A program made the position numbers and the translations under genes. A stretch of 32,000 nt of DNA from Wigglesworthia glossinidia endosymbiont of Glossina brevipalpis. GTDB lineage: Bacteria; Pseudomonadota; Gammaproteobacteria; Enterobacterales; Enterobacteriaceae. This document shows positions 1,395 through 28,247 of this stretch, piece by piece. The notes under the pieces are model-generated. The model was not told where the DNA came from, made no database searches, and worked only from the letters and a program-made list of their open reading frames with translations. Positions within the stretch are counted from its first letter, which is position 1, and every line of letters begins with the position of its first letter. Location of the stretch: assembly GCA_000008885.1 (NCBI GenBank), contig BA000021.3:540001-572000 (forward strand), read 5' to 3'.

Positions 1395-2198
1395 ATGAAA
1401 TATATAATTAATTCATTAGTTATTTTTGATACAATTGAATATAATCTAAGCTTATTTAAAAAAAAAAACAAACATATCAAATTATCACATTCTGCTGGAA
1501 GAGTTTTAGAAGAACTTATTAAATTTCATAAAAATTCTTCTCCAATATCAAGGGAATATCTTTTTAAGAATATTTGGATAATACATGGATTACAACCATC
1601 TAATGGAAATTTGAATCAACAAATTAGTTTAATAAGAAAAGGTTTAAAACATCTTGGATTAAACTCTTCAGTTATAGTAACAATTCCAAAAAAAGGTTTA
1701 AAATTAAATGATAAATTAAAGATAAAAAAGTTAGAAAAAAATAATGCAAAAGATTTCATAATAGATGAAATTAGTTCTTCTTTTAAGAAAAGAACTTTAT
1801 TTAATTTATCAAGAATAAATTTTAAATATAAAATTATTTTCTCTTTAATATCTTTTATAATATTATTTATCTTTTTTAGCATGTTTTATTCTTTTAAATA
1901 CAAAAATAACTTAAATCAAAAATTATATTTCTTTGATCAAGTAAATTCTTGCAAGGTATACACATTTCATCCTATTTCTATTTTAGAAAAAAAAGAATAC
2001 GACATTAAAGTTGCAGCAGCTTTTGAAGAAAATGATTATAAATGCAAAAAAAATTATATTGTAATAATATCAAAATTTGTTGTATCAGACGATAACTTAA
2101 TGAAAGAAGATAAAAAAACGAACACTTTTATAGAAAAGTGTTTCAGGGATAAAAATGAAAGAATTCTAAATTGTTTAAATTTATTTTTTGTAAGTTAA
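1395..2198 (+). CDS. ToxR/CadC-like membrane-anchored transcriptional regulator: N-terminal OmpR/PhoB-type winged helix, one TM segment, small Cys-containing C-terminal domain
   Basis: The N-terminus (HIKLSHSAGRVLEELIKFHKNSSPISREYLFKNIWIIHGLQPSNGNLNQQISLIRKGLKHLGLNSSVIVTIPKKGLKL) follows the CadC/ToxR winged-helix pattern (L..L......SR..L...VW.......L...IS.LRK.L.......I.TVPK.GYKL). A hydrophobic segment KIIFSLISFIILFIFFSMFYSF lies at about aa 146-167. A C-terminal region of about 100 aa carries 4 Cys. A GGAG Shine-Dalgarno sits 6 nt upstream of the ATG. Confidence 0.6.
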   Translation: MKYIINSLVIFDTIEYNLSLFKKKNKHIKLSHSAGRVLEELIKFHKNSSPISREYLFKNIWIIHGLQPSNGNLNQQISLIRKGLKHLGLNSSVIVTIPKKGLKLNDKLKIKKLEKNNAKDFIIDEISSSFKKRTLFNLSRINFKYKIIFSLISFIILFIFFSMFYSFKYKNNLNQKLYFFDQVNSCKVYTFHPISILEKKEYDIKVAAAFEENDYKCKKNYIVIISKFVVSDDNLMKEDKKTNTFIEKCFRDKNERILNCLNLFFVS

Positions 2199-4258: not shown

Positions 4259-6007
4259 TTATTTTTTTGATAATTTTTTGTTTATACACCATAGTTCTTT
4301 TTTTTCTTCAACGCTTAAATCTTGAATTCTAGCACGAGAAATTAGAATATTTTGTCGTGAAACTAATATTATTTTATATAAACTTGATAAGGTTTCAATG
4401 AATATCTGTTTTATTAAATTTTCTGAAATCATATGATCCCAAATTGCTAAATTTTCAAGATGATTATGATATTTTTTCCCTCTATAATGTTCAAGTATTT
4501 GACTTGTATTTATATTAGTATTATTTTTACATATTTTAATTAATTCTATAAAAAATGGAATTTCTTTTATTCTAATATTATATAATTTTATTTCATTTTT
4601 TTTAGATATTAATTTTGATAATTTAGGATTTTGAATCAATAATCCAATTAGAGTATTCATAATATTGTTTTTATATTTTATTTGTTTATTTTTTTTATAT
4701 TTTATTTCTTTTAAAGATAAAAATTTTTCTAATTGGTAATCTTCTAGTATTCCTATTTTATAGCCTATTTCTTTTCTAATATATAATCGTAAATTTTTTC
4801 CTGGAATTTTTTTTATTATAGGTAAAATTAATTTTATAAATTTTACTTTTCCGTCTAAATGATATAAATTAGATTTCTTTATCAAAGTATCAAATAAAAA
4901 AGATGACATTGGTTTTGCATCTTCAATAAGAATTTCAAATGATTTTTTTCCTATTTTTCTTATTAAAGAATCAGGATCTTCGTTGTTTGGAAGAAATATA
5001 AAAAAAATTTCTCTTCCATCTTCAAGGTAAGACAATGAATTTATCAATGTTTTCCATGCAGATCTTCTACCAGCGGAATCTCCGTCATAACAACAAATAA
5101 TTTTATTTGTTAATCTAAAAATTATTTTTATTTGAAAAGGTGTTGTGCATCCTAAAGAAGCTACAGAATAATAAATTCCATATTGGGATAAAGAAATAAC
5201 GTCAAAATATCCTTCTACTAAAAGTATTTTTAATATTTTTATTTTTCTTTTTTTTATTTCATAAATTCCATACAAATAATTACTTTTTTTAAATATTAAT
5301 GTTTCTTTAGAATTTAAATATTTTGGAAAAAAATTATTTATAGATCTTCCTCCAAAGGCAATAACGTTTCCGTATTTATCTTTCATTGGAATCATTATTC
5401 TATTTTTAAATATATTGCTTAATTTTTTTTTTTCATTTATTAAAAAAATTCCAGAAGATTTTAATAAATAAAAATTTTGTAAAGATTGTTTTAAATAATT
5501 TAAAATATTAATATTTATACTAGAAAAACCAATAGAAAATTCTTCTATAGAATCAATATTCAAACCACGATTATTTAAATAATCGTTCGCTTCAATAAAA
5601 ATCTTTGAATTTAATATTTTTTTATATATCATGCTTACTTGGTTCATAAGTTTATATATATCACTTCTTTTTTTTAACTCTTCGTTGTTTATAATTTTTT
5701 TTGATTGTGCTTTTTTAAAAGCAAACCCTGCAATATTAGATAATTCTTCTATTGATTCTATAAAAGTTAAATTATTGTAATTCATTAAGAAATCAATTGC
5801 ATTTCCATGAATGCCACAACCAAAACAATGAAAAAACTGTTTTTCGTAACTTACAGAAAATGAAGGTGTTTTCTCTTGATGAAACGGACAGAGCGCGAAA
5901 TAATTTTTTCCTGATTTTTTTAAATTAATTATTGAACTAATCAGTTCAATTATGTTTATATTTTCTAACAATCTATTAATAAATAAATTTGAAATATAAG
6001 CATTCAT
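4259..6007 (-). CDS. dnaG: DNA primase DnaG
   Basis: 582 aa. Zinc-ribbon CPFHQEKTPSFSVSYEKQFFHCFGCGIHGNAIDFLM and TOPRIM region LLVEGYFDVISL...CCYDGDSAGRRSAW. It lies between rpsU and rpoD. Confidence 0.97.
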   Translation of the reverse strand: MNAYISNLFINRLLENINIIELISSIINLKKSGKNYFALCPFHQEKTPSFSVSYEKQFFHCFGCGIHGNAIDFLMNYNNLTFIESIEELSNIAGFAFKKAQSKKIINNEELKKRSDIYKLMNQVSMIYKKILNSKIFIEANDYLNNRGLNIDSIEEFSIGFSSININILNYLKQSLQNFYLLKSSGIFLINEKKKLSNIFKNRIMIPMKDKYGNVIAFGGRSINNFFPKYLNSKETLIFKKSNYLYGIYEIKKRKIKILKILLVEGYFDVISLSQYGIYYSVASLGCTTPFQIKIIFRLTNKIICCYDGDSAGRRSAWKTLINSLSYLEDGREIFFIFLPNNEDPDSLIRKIGKKSFEILIEDAKPMSSFLFDTLIKKSNLYHLDGKVKFIKLILPIIKKIPGKNLRLYIRKEIGYKIGILEDYQLEKFLSLKEIKYKKNKQIKYKNNIMNTLIGLLIQNPKLSKLISKKNEIKLYNIRIKEIPFFIELIKICKNNTNINTSQILEHYRGKKYHNHLENLAIWDHMISENLIKQIFIETLSSLYKIILVSRQNILISRARIQDLSVEEKKELWCINKKLSKK

Positions 6008-8682: not shown

Positions 8683-9860
8683 AATAAACCAGAAGCATAT
8701 TTAATAATAAATTTTTTTATTAAATTAGAGCATTCTACAGAATGTAAAGCTAAATTTCTTATTTTTTTAATAATCCATATATCATTAGAAAATAATAAAC
8801 GAAATAAGTCTATATTAAATTGCATAATAGTGTTATAAGTTTTGCAATTATTTTCATACTTTTTTAAAGTATTTAATTCATACCAATTTTTCTTTGTGCA
8901 TTTAGATTCAATTAATACATCAGAAAGTTGTTTTACGTCTCTGAAACCTAAGTTTCCTCCTTGTCCAGCTAAAGGATGTATAGTATGAACAGCATCGCCT
9001 AAAAGAGCTAACCCTTGTTTAACGTACTGATATCCATATAAAAAAGTCAAAGGTACTATTTCTTTTTTGTGTAAAGTGACTGGACCTAATCTTTTTGGAA
9101 ATTTAGACATAATCAATTTTTCTATTAAATTAAAAGACATATTGTTTATTTCATGTAAATATTCTGTTAAATCATACCAAATTAATAATGCCCAATCATC
9201 ATATAAAGGCAAATATGCTTTTGGACCATTTAAATCTATAGATTGCCATACAGTATAATTTTTTTTAGTTCTAATTTTTACAATAAACAACATGCAAGAC
9301 TGACTATAATTAAATTTTATAAAAGGAATTCCAGATTTTTTTCTTACCCAAGAATTTTTTCCATCTGCTCCAATTATCAAATTACTAAATATATATTTTC
9401 CATTATTTAATATAATTTTCCATACTTTTTTTATATCATCATAATACATATTTCTTATTCCTATGGAATTTTTTATTATAAATTTTTTGTACTTATTTTC
9501 AGTCTCAATCAAAGCTTTGTTCAATCTATGATTTTCTATGATATAACCTAATCCAGATAAATCTATTGAATCAGAACAAAACTTAACAGGAAAAAAAGAA
9601 TTTTCCCAAGTTTCTATATATTTATATTTAGTGCAAAATTTCAGATCAATTTTATTCCATACGTCTATATCGTATAAAAATTTTATAGTAGAATAATTTA
9701 GAGCTAATATTTTAAAATCTGGTATTTCATCATATGAAAAACTTTTTTTGTTTTCTAATTCAATTAATTTTATTAAAAATCCATGTTTAGCTAATTTTAT
9801 AGATAAACTTTTTCCTAAAATTCCAGAGCCAATAATTACAATATCAAAAAATTTTTTCAT
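8679..9860 (-). CDS. ubiF: FAD-dependent ubiquinone-biosynthesis hydroxylase of the UbiH/UbiF/UbiI family, best recalled match UbiF
   Basis: 393 aa. Motifs: GxGxxG DIVIIGSGILGKSL, IIGADGKNSWVRK and LLGDAVHTIHPLAGQGGNLGFRDV. From memory, blocks YSQSCMLFIV, GPKAYLPLYDDWALLIWYD and C-terminal IKYASGL parallel E. coli UbiF. Its stop codon overlaps the uppP stop (convergent). Confidence 0.7.
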   Translation of the reverse strand: MKKFFDIVIIGSGILGKSLSIKLAKHGFLIKLIELENKKSFSYDEIPDFKILALNYSTIKFLYDIDVWNKIDLKFCTKYKYIETWENSFFPVKFCSDSIDLSGLGYIIENHRLNKALIETENKYKKFIIKNSIGIRNMYYDDIKKVWKIILNNGKYIFSNLIIGADGKNSWVRKKSGIPFIKFNYSQSCMLFIVKIRTKKNYTVWQSIDLNGPKAYLPLYDDWALLIWYDLTEYLHEINNMSFNLIEKLIMSKFPKRLGPVTLHKKEIVPLTFLYGYQYVKQGLALLGDAVHTIHPLAGQGGNLGFRDVKQLSDVLIESKCTKKNWYELNTLKKYENNCKTYNTIMQFNIDLFRLLFSNDIWIIKKIRNLALHSVECSNLIKKFIIKYASGLF

Positions 9861-9912: not shown

Positions 9913-10959
<1,047 letters not shown>

Positions 10960-14699: not shown

Positions 14700-17600
14700 T
14701 TAAAAATCAAAACGGTAGATTACATCTACCGCTTGATTTTTATCTGAAATTGCTTCCAAATATATTTTGTTGGTTAATTTATAATTTATTTTTAACATAA
14801 AAGAATTTCTATCAAATGTTTTTATTCCATATTTTATCTTTAATTTTTTAAGAAAATTTCCACTAACTATAATTCTAGATTGATTTCCGAATCCTTGAGC
14901 CTTTAAATAAAGGTTTTTAATTCCTACTTTTTGTCCTATTTTTTGTATTAAATATTCGCTTTTTATTACGCTAATTCCTATTATCATAGAAGTTAATATA
15001 TTTTCTCCTTCAAAACTAGAAAAAGAAATTTTATTTTTATTTATTAAGTAAGAAAATTTTTCTTTATCATATTGTTCTGGATCAGAGAATATATATAATT
15101 TAGAATTGTTAGCAATCCCAAAAATTTTAATTCCTGAAATTGTATGATTCATGTTTGATAGTTCATATTTAACAGCTTCTATATCTATATATGGTTTATC
15201 TATAGGGCCAGAAAATATTAATTGACCTTTTCTTACATATAATTCTTGTCCGTAAATATGTATAATTCCTGAAATTATTTTAATTTGTCCATTTAATTTA
15301 GAGCGATTTTTATCCGTGATTAATTTTAAATTTCCTTGCAATTTAGCTTTTAATCCAAGAACATTAATATATACATTATCATCAATAATTATTGATATAT
15401 TTGAATTTATGCTAATATTATTAGTTTCTTTTTTGTTTGAAAAAATTAATGTATTTATATTATCAAGTATAATCTCATCTTTAGATATTATAGAATAATT
15501 ATTAGAAATTTTTTCATTTTCTATAAAAATATTAGAAACATTTATATTTCCTGATATATATAATTTTTTTTGATTTATTTCTAAATATATATTTGGAGAG
15601 ATTTTTATATGAATAAAATCTAATATAATAAATTTTAATTTTTCTCCAGAAATTTTAATTAAAATTTTACAATTTTTTTCGTTTCTCCATTCAGAGAATC
15701 CATTTATCTTTAATTTTTCTTTAAAACCATTAATCGAGCTATCTATAAAAAAATATTTTCCTAAAAATTTTATATTAATAAAAAAATTTTTAAAGTTTGT
15801 TTTTATTACATTATTGCTTAAATTAAAAAAATTAATATTTAATTTTCCATTAATATTTATTCCTTGGAAATTATTAAAGTATAATTTTGAATTTATTTCT
15901 CCATCAACATCAAAATCATATAAAAGAATTTTAAATAATTTTAATGGAGTTTTTTTTGTATATATATATCCATTTATATTTTTGTTAATTACATTAAAGC
16001 ATCCATAAAAATAATCATTCTTATAAATATTTAATATCCATTTAAAATAAAAGTATGATTTTTCATATAAAATATTAATATTAATATAATTAAAATTTTT
16101 TTCAAAAATTTTATTTAAATAAATTTGTTTTATTTTTATGTTTTTCCCGGAAAAAAAAATATTTATTTTTGGAAAAAAATTGTTTAAACTCCAAAGTATT
16201 TCTATTTTACTTTGTATTATTCCAGAAATGACATTCCTTTTGGGAAGAAGTGGTTGAATTCTTGATAAATCAAAATTTTTTATATTAATTACTACGTATT
16301 TATTTTCTTTTTTTATATAATTATCAAAAATATTTTCTAAAAAATTTTTTTTATTATTAAAATAATTTTTATCATAAATTTTATTTTCATATATTAAAAA
16401 ATCAATTAAAAAATTTTTATTTGTTTTTTTATTAAAAAATTCAAATATTTGAATCCATCCATTATATTTGTTATTTTTAATATCGTACTTTAAGTATAAA
16501 TCAATATTTTTATTATATAGTTCATTGTTAGATGAAATAATAAATTCATTTTGTATTTTGTTTTTCCAATTATTAAAATAAAATTTATTTATTAATAATT
16601 TATTTAATAAAAAAATTTTTTCTATTTTTATTTTTAAATAATTAAATTGAAATAATTCATTTATATTTAATTGAATATTAGAATATTTTATTTTTATATC
16701 TTTTATAACAAGATCTTTTATTTTAAATAATAAATTTGCATTTAATTCATTATTTTTTGTATATATAAAGATCTTTCCGTTTATTTTTCCGTAAAAATTT
16801 TTAGAAAGTAAATTAAAATCAAAATAAATATTTGAGTTGTTTTTATTTTCTTGAAAAATAAAAAAATTTTTTTCAAAATATAAAAAAAATTTAGAAATAT
16901 AAAAAAATTTTTTTATATTTTTTTTTAAAATTAAATTTATTTTAAACAACTCGTACGATTTATTATAAATTGATTCAACATCTAATTTTATTAATTCATT
17001 TGTTTTATTGATTTTTCCTTGAAAAAAAAAGCAATTAGAAGTCCTATTTTTATATACTTCTAACCCTAAAAATTTTATTTTTTTTGATATTGTATTTATT
17101 TTAAAAATATAAGAAGAATTTTTATAAAATAATTTTCCGTAAATTTTTAAATTTACTTCTAATATAATTGTTTGATAATTTAAATTTGTTAAATTTTTTT
17201 TTTTATATTTAATTTATTATGAAAATTTTTAAAAAAAAATAATTTATATAAAGATTCTAATTGATTATTAAAAATTAAAGGATATTTTATATCTTGTTTT
17301 TTTTTATTTTTTTTAAAAAAACTGACTTTATCAAAAACAAAAATATTTTCCCACTTTTTTATATTTTCATATAAATTTTCCAAATTATAAATTTTTATTG
17401 ATGCTTGATATAAATCTATATATTTAATATTAACTTCATTTTTATTAAATATTAATTTTGTATTAATTCTTTCAAAAAATAAAGATAAATCTTTATAGTA
17501 AATTTTAACTTTTTGCATAAAAATATTTTTTATCATTAATTTAACTAATTTAGTAATAAATACATTATTATTAAAATCAAATACATAGTTAGAATTAATT

Positions 17601-17908
17601 TTTATTGTTATTTCTTCAAAAGAAGATAATCCTGAAAAAGATTTTTCATAATCAAGCAAATTTTTATTAAAATTAAATTGATACTCTTTAATAAAGATAT
17701 CAAAATTTGAATTTTTATATTTAATATCATTAATAGTTAATTTTTCTAAATCTATATTAATAGAACCTATTGTAAAATCATTAATTTTAAAATTGATTTT
17801 GTTTTCTGATATATATGTACAATAAAAAAAATGAAAAAATAGAAGACAAGTGTTAAATATCAAATTAATAAAAAATATTTTTAAATAAATTTTGCAAGAA
17901 AAGCTCAC
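14700..17908 (-). pseudogene. tamB: tamB (ytfN) translocation-and-assembly-module inner-membrane subunit. As written it is split into two ORFs by a frame change inside an A11 tract, so it is either a pseudogene or a slippage-dependent CDS.
   Basis: The upstream ORF 17908..17189 has a GTG start overlapping the tamA stop (GTGA) and an N-terminal signal-anchor (IFFINLIFNTCLLFFHFF). The downstream frame is open from 17213 to 14700 and ends in a DUF490-like C-terminus (...KINYKLTNKIYLEAISDKNQAVDVIYRFDF). The two frames overlap only over 17189..17213. It lies immediately downstream of tamA, as in E. coli tamA-tamB. Confidence 0.75.
17194..17204 (-). repeat. Sense-strand poly(A) tract, 11 nt, at the tamB frame junction
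   Basis: The plus strand is T x11 at 17194-17204. The upstream frame reads ATA AAA AAA AAA ATT TAA. The downstream frame reads AAA AAA AAA AAT TTA ACA ... Confidence 0.95.
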
Positions 17909-19644
17909 AATTCAGATCCTAATCCTATATAAAATTCCAAGCTATTTTCTTTAAAAAAAGATATTGGCTTAGCTATATCAAGTTTGATTGTTCCAAAATT
18001 CGCAGGCCACCTTATTCCAAGGCCTATTCCAGTATGTAAATTTTTATAATTTAATGAATCACTTGCATCTCCATTGTCAACAAATAAAGCAAACCATAAA
18101 TTTTTATAAAAATTATATTGATATTCTAATGAAATAGTAAAAAGCTTTAAAGATCCTATAACGTTATTATCTTTATCTAAAGATGATAAAGTTTTATATT
18201 TAAATCCACGAATACTTTTATCTCCTCCAGCAAAAAATTTCATAGATGAAGGAATGTCATTAGAAAAATTAGTAAATATATATCCAATATTATTTCTTAT
18301 AATATATCTATGTTTTTCTAAATAAGTATTAATAAAGGTATTATTTACTTTTAACATAAAAAAATTTACACTAGATCCAAAAATCTTGTTAGATAAATTG
18401 AATTCGTAATTTTGATTTAATCCAAAAAAAGGGAAGGATATTTCATCATAATTTATTTTATTAATTTGAAAGCTAGGATAAATTAATATTTTTTTTTTTA
18501 TTTTAAAATTATTAACAATATAGTTATCTAAAACAAAGTATATATTAATAGATTTTTTAAAATTATCATTAATATTCCAATTTTTTGATATATTAAATGT
18601 AATTGATCTGTATTTATATTGATTTAAATAAAAATTTTTTATTTGAGATTGCAATAAATAATATTCATTAATAGGATTTTTTATTATTGGTATTTTATAT
18701 TTTAAATTAAATATTTTTTCATATATTGAAAAATATAATTTATTTTTTATGCTATGTCCTAAACTATTAATCCATGGTATTTCTAAATAACTTGTAATAT
18801 GAAATTTATTTCTTGAGTTATATCCTAATCCTACTTCCAATCTGTTTTTGTTATTAGGAGATAAAATAACATTCAAAGGTACAACATTTTTATATTTTGA
18901 ATTATTATATATATCTGGTGATACCGTAACTGAATTAAACCAATTAGTTGAAATTAGCTTATTATTTAGATCTGATATTAATTCAATATTATAAAGTTTA
19001 TTATAATAATTATTAGAAATATTTTTTAAATATGATTTATGTATTTTTGATCCATAAAAATTAATTTTTCCAAATCTATATCTATAACCACTATTAAATA
19101 CAATAAACCAACGTGCTACATTATAATTAGGAAATACTTGTAATTCACTTACTTCAAAGTCTGCGTCAAAATATCCTTTTTTAATAGAAATATCTAATAA
19201 ACCTTGTTTAAATTTTTCATATTTATAATGATTCAATTGACTTCCTATTTTAGGAAAATTATTTTTTATCCATGCATTATAGTCAGTATCGTTTTTAGAA
19301 TCTCCGTTTAATATAATTTTTGAATCTAACATTTTTATAAAATCACCCTGTACAACATAAATAGTTATTATATTTCTATTTTTTTTAGGGCTAGAATATT
19401 TTATATTAATTTTAGGATAATAATAACCTATAGATCTTAAACAATTTTTAACAATCTTTTCAGTTTTTTTTTTGAAAATAATTTTATCTAAAATATCTTC
19501 ATTTTTAATATCATATAAACAATTTATAATTTTATTTTTGATAATTTTATTTGAACTTTTAGTTTTTACTATAAAAATGTTTCCATGAGACAAAAAAATT
19601 AAAAAATAAAATGATAAAGAAAAATAAAAAAATTTTTTATACAT
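17905..19644 (-). CDS. tamA: TamA (YtfM) Omp85-family outer-membrane subunit of the translocation and assembly module
   Basis: 579 aa (E. coli TamA is about 577 aa). It has an N-terminal signal-like segment, a POTRA-like N-terminal third, and a C-terminal beta-barrel with an Omp85 signature (FFAGGDKSIRGFKYKTL ... GIGLGIRWPANFGTIKLDIAKP). The terminal residues FYIGLGSEL lack the usual aromatic last residue. It is followed by tamB. Confidence 0.85.
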   Translation of the reverse strand: MYKKFFYFSLSFYFLIFLSHGNIFIVKTKSSNKIIKNKIINCLYDIKNEDILDKIIFKKKTEKIVKNCLRSIGYYYPKINIKYSSPKKNRNIITIYVVQGDFIKMLDSKIILNGDSKNDTDYNAWIKNNFPKIGSQLNHYKYEKFKQGLLDISIKKGYFDADFEVSELQVFPNYNVARWFIVFNSGYRYRFGKINFYGSKIHKSYLKNISNNYYNKLYNIELISDLNNKLISTNWFNSVTVSPDIYNNSKYKNVVPLNVILSPNNKNRLEVGLGYNSRNKFHITSYLEIPWINSLGHSIKNKLYFSIYEKIFNLKYKIPIIKNPINEYYLLQSQIKNFYLNQYKYRSITFNISKNWNINDNFKKSINIYFVLDNYIVNNFKIKKKILIYPSFQINKINYDEISFPFFGLNQNYEFNLSNKIFGSSVNFFMLKVNNTFINTYLEKHRYIIRNNIGYIFTNFSNDIPSSMKFFAGGDKSIRGFKYKTLSSLDKDNNVIGSLKLFTISLEYQYNFYKNLWFALFVDNGDASDSLNYKNLHTGIGLGIRWPANFGTIKLDIAKPISFFKENSLEFYIGLGSEL

Positions 19645-21557: not shown

Positions 21558-22261
21558 TTAAATAAATATTTTTTTAATTTTTTTTACATAGTTAAATATT
21601 ATATCTATTACTTCTTCAGTTCTTAATAATGTAGAATCAATTATAAAAGATTGTGAATCTGGAATTAAAGGAGAAATAGATCTATTTATATCTAATTCGT
21701 CTCTTTTTTTCATATCATACATTATATTATTAAAATTAACATTAAAGCCTTTTTTCTGCAACTGTATAGTTCTGCGTATTGCTCTTTCTTTTATAGAAGC
21801 ATGAAGAAATATTTTTATTTCAGCCTCAGGAAATACAACAGATCCCATATCTCTTCCTTCTGCTATAAGCCCTGGAATTTTATAAAAATTTTTTTGAATT
21901 TTAATTAAAAATTTTCTTAAAATAGGAAACAGAGAAATTTTTGAAGCAATACAAACTATTTTTTCATCTAAAATTTCTAAAGTAACGTCTTTTCCATTAA
22001 GTATGGTATGCAATTTATTTTTTTTAATTTCAAATTTTACATTTAAACACTTGCAAAGTAATATTAAGTTCTTTTCATTAAATTTTAATTTACTATACTT
22101 ACTCCATAGCAAACTCAAAGATCTATATATAGCTCCTGAGTTTAAAATATTCCATTTAAAATTTTTTGCAATTATTTTTGAAATAGTGCTTTTCCCTGAC
22201 CCACTAGGTCCATCTATAGTTATTATATTTTTTTTTTTAATATTTTTATATTATTTATCAT
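21558..22261 (-). CDS. cmk: Cytidylate kinase. The P-loop N-terminus is in frame but has no ATG/GTG/TTG start. The nearest ATG (22261) is in the -1 frame, upstream of an A11 tract.
   Basis: The in-frame reading from 22250 is YKNIKKKNIITIDGPSGSGKSTISKIIAKNFKWNILNSGAIYRSLSLLWS... This is the Cmk P-loop ITIDGPSGSGKST, followed by GLIAEGRDMGSVVFPEAEIKIFLHASIKERAIRR. The track ORF (22118, TTG) lacks the P-loop and cannot be the true start. Alternative starts are ATT at 22241, or ATG at 22261 with one extra A in the tract. Confidence 0.85.
22228..22238 (-). repeat. Sense-strand poly(A) tract, 11 nt, between the only upstream ATG and the cmk P-loop
   Basis: The plus strand is T x11 at 22228-22238, counted directly. 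Confidence 0.95.
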
Positions 22262-22334
22262 ATATAATATTTTTAAACAATATTTGCTTGTAAAGTATAT
22301 AATAATAAAAAATTATTTATATATAATAATATGC

Positions 22335-27752: not shown

Positions 27753-28247
27753 TTAAAAAAATGTTAACAAAAAAGATATTAATATACAAATAAAAACTAA
27801 AAAATAAAAAATATATAATTTATTATTTATTAATTGATACATAACATTATTTAATATATTTCCAATAATACCACCAAAATATATTCCACTGTAATTATCA
27901 TCAAACAAGAAAGATAAAAAACAACAACAAAATAAAATTAATAAAAACATATGAATTATTTTATATGATAATTTTATTAAGTTAATTTTTTTTTTTGTAT
28001 AAAAACAACAATCTAAAAAAAAAGATAAAAAAAATAAAGGAATAAAATAAGTCATTTTCCCAATCATAATAAACAATGTTCCTGATATATATGCTCCGTA
28101 CTTACCTCCAAAATTAAATATATAGTCGTTAGATGATGTTTTTAATAAATTTGGATCATCTTCATTAAAAGATATAATAGAAATTAATAAATACAAAGTT
28201 ATTATGAAAACAAGAAATACTTTTTTTTTATTATATTCATTTAACAT
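27753..28247 (-). CDS. ftsK: FtsK N-terminal membrane (division-septum targeting) domain only. The linker and C-terminal DNA-translocase motor are absent.
   Basis: 164 aa aligning with E. coli FtsK residues of about 20-185. Paired blocks are ISFNEDDPNLL / LSFNPSDPSW, NFGGKYGAYISGTLFIMIGKMTYFIP / [26 protein letters not shown], and FGGIIGNIL / SGGVIGSLL. It sits at the syntenic position (trxB-[lrp]-ftsK-lolA). Only 77 bp separate its stop from the lolA start. Confidence 0.75.
   Translation of the reverse strand: MLNEYNKKKVFLVFIITLYLLISIISFNEDDPNLLKTSSNDYIFNFGGKYGAYISGTLFIMIGKMTYFIPLFFLSFFLDCCFYTKKKINLIKLSYKIIHMFLLILFCCCFLSFLFDDNYSGIYFGGIIGNILNNVMYQLINNKLYIFYFLVFICILISFLLTFF

Follow-up and report, generated by a model that had tools for sequence, protein, structure and literature searches.

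The DNA analysed here, called the window throughout, is a stretch of 32,000 nucleotides (nt) from the genome of Wigglesworthia glossinidia, endosymbiont of Glossina brevipalpis; all positions are those of the window, and sequence of this brevipalpis strain is denoted Wgb. Our subject is tamB, which in the window is represented by two open reading frames (ORFs) on the minus strand that meet at a run of eleven adenines (A11) and that have been deposited as two genes, Wg004 and ytfN. The sequence comparisons below support the view that both belong to one tamB gene and that a single-base frameshift, located at the A11 run, has broken it. The features concerned are these:

17189-17908, minus strand: N-terminal frame of tamB, with a GTG start at 17908-17906, 239 codons and a TAA stop at 17191-17189 (ORF listing and translation)
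14700-17213, minus strand: C-terminal frame of tamB, with 837 open codons, a stop at 14702-14700 and the TamB/DUF490 domain (translation, profile search)
17194-17204, minus strand: A11 run in the sense strand (T11 on the plus strand), the site of the frame break, where A12 or A9 gives a single ORF
17189-17213, minus strand: the sole interval in which both frames are open, so that a single insertion or deletion must fall inside it (three-frame translation)
17917-17920, minus strand: AGGA, Shine-Dalgarno-like, 8 nt 5' of the tamB GTG (read from the sequence)

The split tamB gene

In translation, the N-terminal frame ends ...AAT ATA AAA AAA AAA ATT TAA, and an exact-sequence look-up finds its 239-residue product in GenBank as the orphan 'Wg004' (BAC24628.1). 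The C-terminal frame, whose first residues from 17213 are IKYKKKNLTNLNYQTIILEVNLKIYGKLFYK..., encloses the annotated 749-residue 'ytfN' (14700-16949, TTG start), which is 100% identical to the ytfN of W. glossinidia from G. brevipalpis. With one A inserted into the run, the two frames become an ORF of 1069 codons without stops, the junction of which is ...LNIKKKNLTNLNYQ... (ATA AAA AAA AAA AAT TTA), with three lysines (...NIKKKNLTNL); the junction peptide of the conceptual fusion is NLTNLNYQTIILE, directly preceded by ...NIKKK. An earlier sequence-only reading of this DNA had described the same arrangement, with a first frame ending ...AAA ATT TAA at a stop in 17189-17191, a second frame open from 17213 into the 749-residue ORF, whose start it took to be an internal TTG, an overlap restricted to 17189-17213 around the 11-nt poly(A) run, and a protein of about 1069 residues upon addition of one A. 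Our translations bear this out, placing the TTG at 16949, and depart from it only at the junction peptide, which had been written with four lysines where the codons give three.

Could such an arrangement arise by chance in DNA of this composition? The G+C content in the window is 13-28%, and tamB, at 15%, is its most A+T-rich gene. In the other frames of tamB the mean open run is 6-21 codons, and under an independent-base model the chance of an open frame of 837 codons is ~1e-44. The 88 open codons that precede TTG 16949 without a start codon have a probability of ~2e-5, and the 25-nt interval to which the shift is confined holds the only run of at least 10 in the 3.2-kb gene, for which the chance is roughly 1%. 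On these probabilities the layout of the frames is more than chance.

Comparison with relatives gives the same picture. Those reached via TamA homologues were W. glossinidia morsitans (CP003315; L006), a close relative in a Logan assembly (L004) and a metagenome-assembled genome (MAG) of the palpalis lineage (L001). In W. morsitans and L004 tamB is continuous (1077 and 1076 codons respectively). By composition-adjusted BLASTP the N-terminal ORF matches residues 2-238 of the W. morsitans TamB (34% identity, E 1e-11), and residues 17-837 of the C-terminal frame match residues 253-1077 of the same protein (36% identity, E 6e-128). The 1069-residue fusion made by adding one A is colinear from end to end with the intact 1076- and 1077-residue proteins in a multiple alignment, and the junction is free of gaps. 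The W. morsitans TamB to which the N-terminal ORF aligns carries a precomputed Pfam TamB_N domain (PF27051), and a hydrophobic stretch, KIYLKIFFINLIFNTCLLFFHFF, can be read from the sequence near the N-terminus as a signal-anchor.

Alignment of the fusion to the TamB/DUF490 profile, a check that the sequence-only reading had proposed, finds the expected domain. The C-terminal frame matches Pfam PF04357 at E 1e-35 over profile positions 12-381 of 381, and the TamB equivalog NF047952 of NCBIfam at E 6e-118 over positions 526-1240. At 394 bits the fusion does not reach the curated NF047952 cut-off of 825, but the intact proteins fall short of it too (W. morsitans 425 bits, L004 421 bits), and the low score therefore reflects divergence throughout the genus and not the frameshift. 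In these intact orthologues, too, the profile reaches only the C-terminal two-thirds, and the lack of a family match for the N-terminal ORF is therefore a property of the genus.

Wider searches added little. In a contig collection, a DNA pattern taken from the 3' end of tamB and specific to Wigglesworthia matched the palpalis MAG only, the brevipalpis and morsitans genomes thus being absent from that collection, and a scan with the Wgb TamA gave low-complexity matches only and no relative. When the full fusion was the query of a word-indexed protein search, ytfN and one distant TamB were all that emerged from low-complexity matches rich in K, N and I. A protein search centred on the junction returned only Wg004 and missed even ytfN, so that absence from its results is uninformative.

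The deposited annotation amounts to a different proposal, namely that an orphan Wg004 and a 749-residue YtfN starting at TTG 16949 are two separate functional proteins. We consider this hardly tenable; the likelihoods attached to this and the other readings are our judgement and were not computed. Wg004 is, by BLASTP, the N-terminus of TamB. TTG 16949 (codon 88) is the only ATG, GTG or TTG in the first 330 codons of the C-terminal frame, no Shine-Dalgarno motif was found in the sequence before it, and the 88 open codons on its 5' side are homologous to TamB. With one poor start codon and no such motif, the C-terminal part cannot plausibly start alone. TamB is the inner-membrane-anchored partner of TamA, which it meets in the periplasm. 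From this established topology, a C-terminal fragment lacking the N-terminal anchor would be expected to stay in the cytoplasm, short of the periplasm; given this and the poor start, TamB function would need the fusion. As Wg004 and 'ytfN' both correspond to tamB, public annotation splits one gene into two unrelated ones.

Selection on tamB and the length of the run

If the break were old, the gene should show decay. Within Wigglesworthia, the ratio of nonsynonymous to synonymous divergence (dN/dS) for tamB in the L004/L006 pair is 0.27 at dS 0.25 (N-terminal region 0.30, middle 0.29, C-terminal region 0.22), and these values show that purifying selection acts on tamB in this genus. Between Wgb and its relatives synonymous sites are saturated (proportion of synonymous differences, pS, ~0.47-0.55), so dN/dS was dropped there as uninformative and relative dN used in its place. 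Upstream of the break, dN on the Wgb branch is 1.35 times dN between L001 and L006; downstream, the ratio is 1.68, and eight intact neighbouring genes span 0.85-1.89. Both values lie within the range of the neighbours. Where three other TamBs are invariant, Wgb retains 60% of residues, upstream of the break as well as downstream; at the other alignment columns it retains 29-30%. Finally, 495 of the 7533 possible single substitutions in the C-terminal part would create a stop, and since it contains none, unselected divergence since the shift must be less than ~0.018 substitutions per site (95%); nor is there a second lesion in these 837 codons, despite three further runs of 9. The absence of stops, the neighbour-like rate and the retention of conserved columns uphold the earlier argument against old pseudogenisation, which on this sequence evidence is excluded.

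How far the length of the run can be trusted is a separate matter. The window contains 18 homopolymer runs of length 9, three of 10 and eight of 11, the longest it has. The eleven runs of at least 10 are all sense poly(A), made up of three AAA lysine codons and flanking A's, while runs of 9 consist of sense A and of sense T equally often. Of the eight A11 runs, seven lie in frame, in thiL, dnaG, obg, tamA, the body of cmk, an ftsK fragment and an ORF that begins at 1395; only that of tamB breaks its frame. Positions of three of the in-frame runs are:

18489-18499: A11 in tamA
5423-5433: A11 in dnaG
10253-10263: A11 in obg

The run in thiL (102-112) was considered as another split gene and rejected, as its frame continues through from the window edge. 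Run lengths in the window do not fall off smoothly, and rplU, which has A12 in relatives, has A7 in the brevipalpis genome. This pattern of lengths might arise from the structure of the codons, from an upper limit to the length at which tracts stay stable, or from the way bases were called in the 2002 assembly.

Two independent Logan contigs (SRR22299872 and SRR22299856), probably deriving from the G. brevipalpis bacteriome RNA-seq of PMC10126493 (likely source SRP408059), allow part of the reference to be checked. Over window positions 22682-19770 (2.9 kb) they show no insertions or deletions and one shared substitution; the covered stretch takes in the A11 run at 22228-22238 and five runs of 8-9, and the contigs end just before tamA. 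Wherever the contigs allow a test, the reference thus seems sound at homopolymers, the tamB tract itself lying outside the tested stretch. At window position 22109, within cmk, the reference has a minus-strand C and both contigs have T, a difference due either to polymorphism among colonies or to an error in the reference.

These data bear on the possibility of a sequencing or assembly error, whereby the true genome has A12 (or A9), tamB is an intact gene for 1069 residues and the 2002 Sanger consensus lost one A. All the evidence that tamB has not decayed fits such an error perfectly, and the lesion is exactly of the homopolymer-error type, in a tract known from the deposited reference; there is also the odd pile-up of runs at 11, with nothing longer in the window, while rplU reaches A12 in relatives. 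Against this, the seven other A11 runs of the window are in frame and must be right, or off only by multiples of three, and the Logan contigs agree with the reference without a single insertion or deletion, including at an A11 run. Moreover, genuine homopolymer frameshifts occur in 4-8 genes per Blochmannia genome, so that a real one here is not unexpected. Weighing both sides, we think an error rather unlikely, though the strongest of the alternatives.

Possible slippage, recent loss or programmed frameshifting

The most plausible reading, which we hold tentatively, is that the A11 frameshift in tamB is real and is rescued by transcriptional or ribosomal slippage, as in published cases from Buchnera and Blochmannia. 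Here we infer that the genome truly has A11, that slippage takes place in this organism and that enough protein results for function. In the G. brevipalpis lineage, a lysine-rich stretch would have turned into a long run of A's and then shortened from A12 to A11; owing to the lost A, the frame in the DNA ends two codons past the run. RNA polymerase would stutter on the T11 template, with one A added to give an A12 mRNA, and/or ribosomes would slip by -1 on A-AAA-AAA with tRNA-Lys. Both routes would lead to the same fusion, ...NIKKKNLTNL..., so that full-length TamB of 1069 residues would come from a minority of messages, while unslipped ones would yield a membrane-anchored stub of 239 residues.

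Several observations weigh against slippage rescue. First, the homologous DNA site in W. morsitans and L004 is without a homopolymer in alignment, and tract and shift are therefore specific to the brevipalpis lineage. Comparison of the orthologous tract had been among the checks put forward by the sequence-only reading, and it finds the ORF continuous in both relatives; neither W. morsitans nor L004 shares the frameshift, and the palpalis MAG has a gap of undetermined bases (N) at the place. With the shift unshared among sampled lineages, long-term maintenance is unsupported. Second, the sequence around the run offers neither a stimulatory RNA structure nor a Shine-Dalgarno motif (minimum free energy -5.5 kcal/mol, z 0.31). 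Third, from run statistics, Baranov et al. 2005 (PMC1088944) argued that transcriptional slippage may be of no importance in W. glossinidia, a counter-argument that is indirect. Fourth, exact look-ups of TamA, ytfN, ppa, obg and serS put no independent assembly of the locus on record, and a collection of 15 billion proteins holds no full-length tamB version with A9, A12 or A15. Finally, the data against decay fit a recent mutation, a bypassed lesion and a sequencing error equally well.

The palpalis MAG was itself considered as a second frameshift at the same place and rejected, since its break is a scaffold gap of 10 N (L001 10430-10439) and the locus is thus uninformative as to the frame. 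This gap spans the region homologous to the brevipalpis frameshift (~28 codons), and two Logan contigs of the palpalis lineage (L002, ending at 10429, and L003, ending at 8801) stop within ~50 nt of it. Something in the stretch around the gap resists short-read assembly there too.

Alternatively, tamB may have suffered a very recent inactivating mutation and be a young pseudogene, with slippage products too few to matter. In endosymbionts gene loss usually begins with a homopolymer indel (PMC3017870), the frameshift is lineage-specific, and the gene, with its 15% G+C, is among the fastest-evolving of the window (dN 0.53 against W. morsitans), all of which agrees with this. On the other hand, the mutation would have to fall in a tiny interval (below ~0.018 substitutions per site) of a lineage that is saturated against its relatives at synonymous sites, and would have left 837 codons without a second lesion in spite of their three further runs of 9. 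Furthermore, tamA is intact, and we know of no partner of TamA other than TamB. The survey of Ruiz et al. 2021 (PMC8593681) adds to these points: Wigglesworthia (morsitans genome) has TamB but no YhdP (Table S2), and every reduced endosymbiont surveyed keeps at least one of the two, which makes a simple loss of tamB less likely. We therefore regard a young pseudogene as distinctly unlikely, more so than an error in the reference.

A programmed -1 ribosomal frameshift, of the dnaX or insertion-sequence type, would set a fixed ratio of the 239-residue product to full-length TamB. The N-terminal frame does contain perfect A-AAA-AAA slippery heptamers, and its 0-frame stop follows two codons downstream. 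Yet there is no Shine-Dalgarno-like element upstream, the region being almost free of G, and no structure downstream, as the folding energy and z score given above indicate, and the site is not conserved, W. morsitans and L004 having a continuous ORF. With no stimulatory element and an unconserved site, an evolved programmed frameshift is very improbable, and even taken together with the two-protein proposal it accounts for only a small fraction of our expectation.

The main concrete yield of the analysis is a correction of the annotation: the supposed Wigglesworthia orphan Wg004 is removed, and Wg004 and the 749-residue 'ytfN' become one frameshifted tamB of 1069 codons. Should A11 be real, slippage-dependent gene rescue would extend from Buchnera and Blochmannia to Wigglesworthia, and would do so in a gene that is likely indispensable, being the only TamB/YhdP-family member reported for the genus, which would make it a clean test case. 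Should A11 be real and also fixed, we would suggest, with still less assurance than we attach to slippage rescue itself, that the only TamB/YhdP-type factor of the cell for envelope lipid and protein assembly is made solely from slipped transcripts or ribosomes, at a level set by tract length. An apparently indispensable envelope protein would then be expressed wholly via polymerase infidelity.

Neighbouring genes and known systems

Two further features adjoin the split gene:

17905-19644, minus strand: tamA (ytfM), intact (NCBIfam TamA, E 1e-158), with the in-frame A11 run at 18489-18499 listed above
14710-14734, both strands: G+C-rich hairpin followed by a T-run, terminator-like for tamB and the convergent ppa, within the last ten codons of tamB

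The TGA stop of tamA overlaps the GTG start of tamB (GTGA), and tamB would be translationally coupled to tamA. The pair is flanked by rpsA and, at its other end, by ppa and fbp, giving the order rpsA-tamA-tamB-ppa-fbp, which W. morsitans and L004 share, and tamA-tamB synteny is the same in L001, L004 and L006. The hairpin has the arms GCGGTAGAT-nTA-ATCTACCG. A terminator scan found two against 0.2 expected, and in the 14710-14734 region three Wigglesworthia lineages agree at 40 of 45 bases, although their genes are only ~62% identical there; it seems that the same bases encode the C-terminus of TamB and serve as a bidirectional terminator.

Elsewhere in the window, cmk (21558-22250, minus strand) has no ATG, GTG or TTG between its upstream stop and the P-loop (ITIDGPSGSGKS), and a protein begun at the start annotated in GenBank, TTG 22118 (186 residues, BAC24631.1), lacks the P-loop. 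From an in-frame ATT immediately preceding the A11 run at 22228-22238, a complete protein of 227 residues results, a version present in UniParc. An upstream ATG in another frame joins the body of the gene only if this A11 gains one A, as tamB needs, and the two Logan contigs confirm A11; we did not count the run as a second case of this kind, the in-frame ATT start giving a complete product. The aroA gene, which lies between serC and cmk in L001, L004 and L006, is absent here (window 22119-22334), in agreement with the loss of the chorismate pathway published for the brevipalpis symbiont (PMC3280448). At 27753-28247 (minus strand), a 164-residue ORF matches the FtsK profile only at positions 28-160 of 1355 and contains an in-frame A11 run at 27986-27996; it is the truncated ftsK listed by Rio et al. 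2012 (PMC3280448) as a pseudogene common to both Wigglesworthia genomes. A 267-residue ORF at 1395-2198 (plus strand), with an in-frame A11 run at 1458-1468 near its 5' end, has no NCBIfam match at E 1e-5.

Compared with the TamB of Escherichia coli (1259 residues), an AsmA-like lipid-bridge protein, the Wigglesworthia protein shares the C-terminal DUF490/TamB domain, the upstream tamA and the hydrophobic N-terminal anchor, but is ~190 residues shorter, and its N-terminal third is too divergent for the profile. We found no description of a Wigglesworthia tamB frameshift in the searchable literature. For the same genus, Rio et al. 2012 (PMC3280448) report pseudogenes of W. morsitans with frameshifts of 1-2 indels and suggest that homopolymer frameshifts may be bypassed during transcription or translation; those cases are from the morsitans genome, where tamB is intact. 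The three shared pseudogenes that they name are ftsK, nusB and nlpB, and the brevipalpis tamB split is not one of them.

As a mechanism, the dnaX frameshift (A-AAA-AAG) resembles the tamB case in its slippery lysine heptamer and in the -1 direction of the shift needed. The tamB site differs from it in having neither a stimulatory Shine-Dalgarno motif or hairpin nor conservation, and in outcome as well: the dnaX shift truncates a protein, whereas that in tamB would complete one.

The closest parallels are with other insect endosymbionts. In Buchnera and Blochmannia, genes frameshifted in homopolymers yield, through slippage, both full-length protein and a mixed pool of mRNAs (Williams & Wernegreen 2010, PMC3017870, citing Tamas et al. 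2008), and the 4-8 homopolymer-frameshifted genes of each Blochmannia genome occur among 114-153 coding poly(A) runs of at least 9 (PMC3017870). The tamB case differs from the ancient, maintained frameshifts of Wernegreen 2010 in that the other lineages sampled, none of them closely related to the brevipalpis symbiont, do not share the shift, and from the Buchnera and Blochmannia class in that it is known from a deposited genome sequence. In other respects the likeness to that class is close: an A+T-rich obligate insect endosymbiont, a single-base indel in a sense poly(A) run of 9-12, and a gene otherwise intact on both sides of the break and without acceleration of its rate. The partner gene is itself a published Blochmannia case, ytfM (tamA) having independent homopolymer frameshifts there (PMC3017870). 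The tamB case is a further instance of this well-described kind of poly(A) frameshift, and not a new mechanism or phenomenon.

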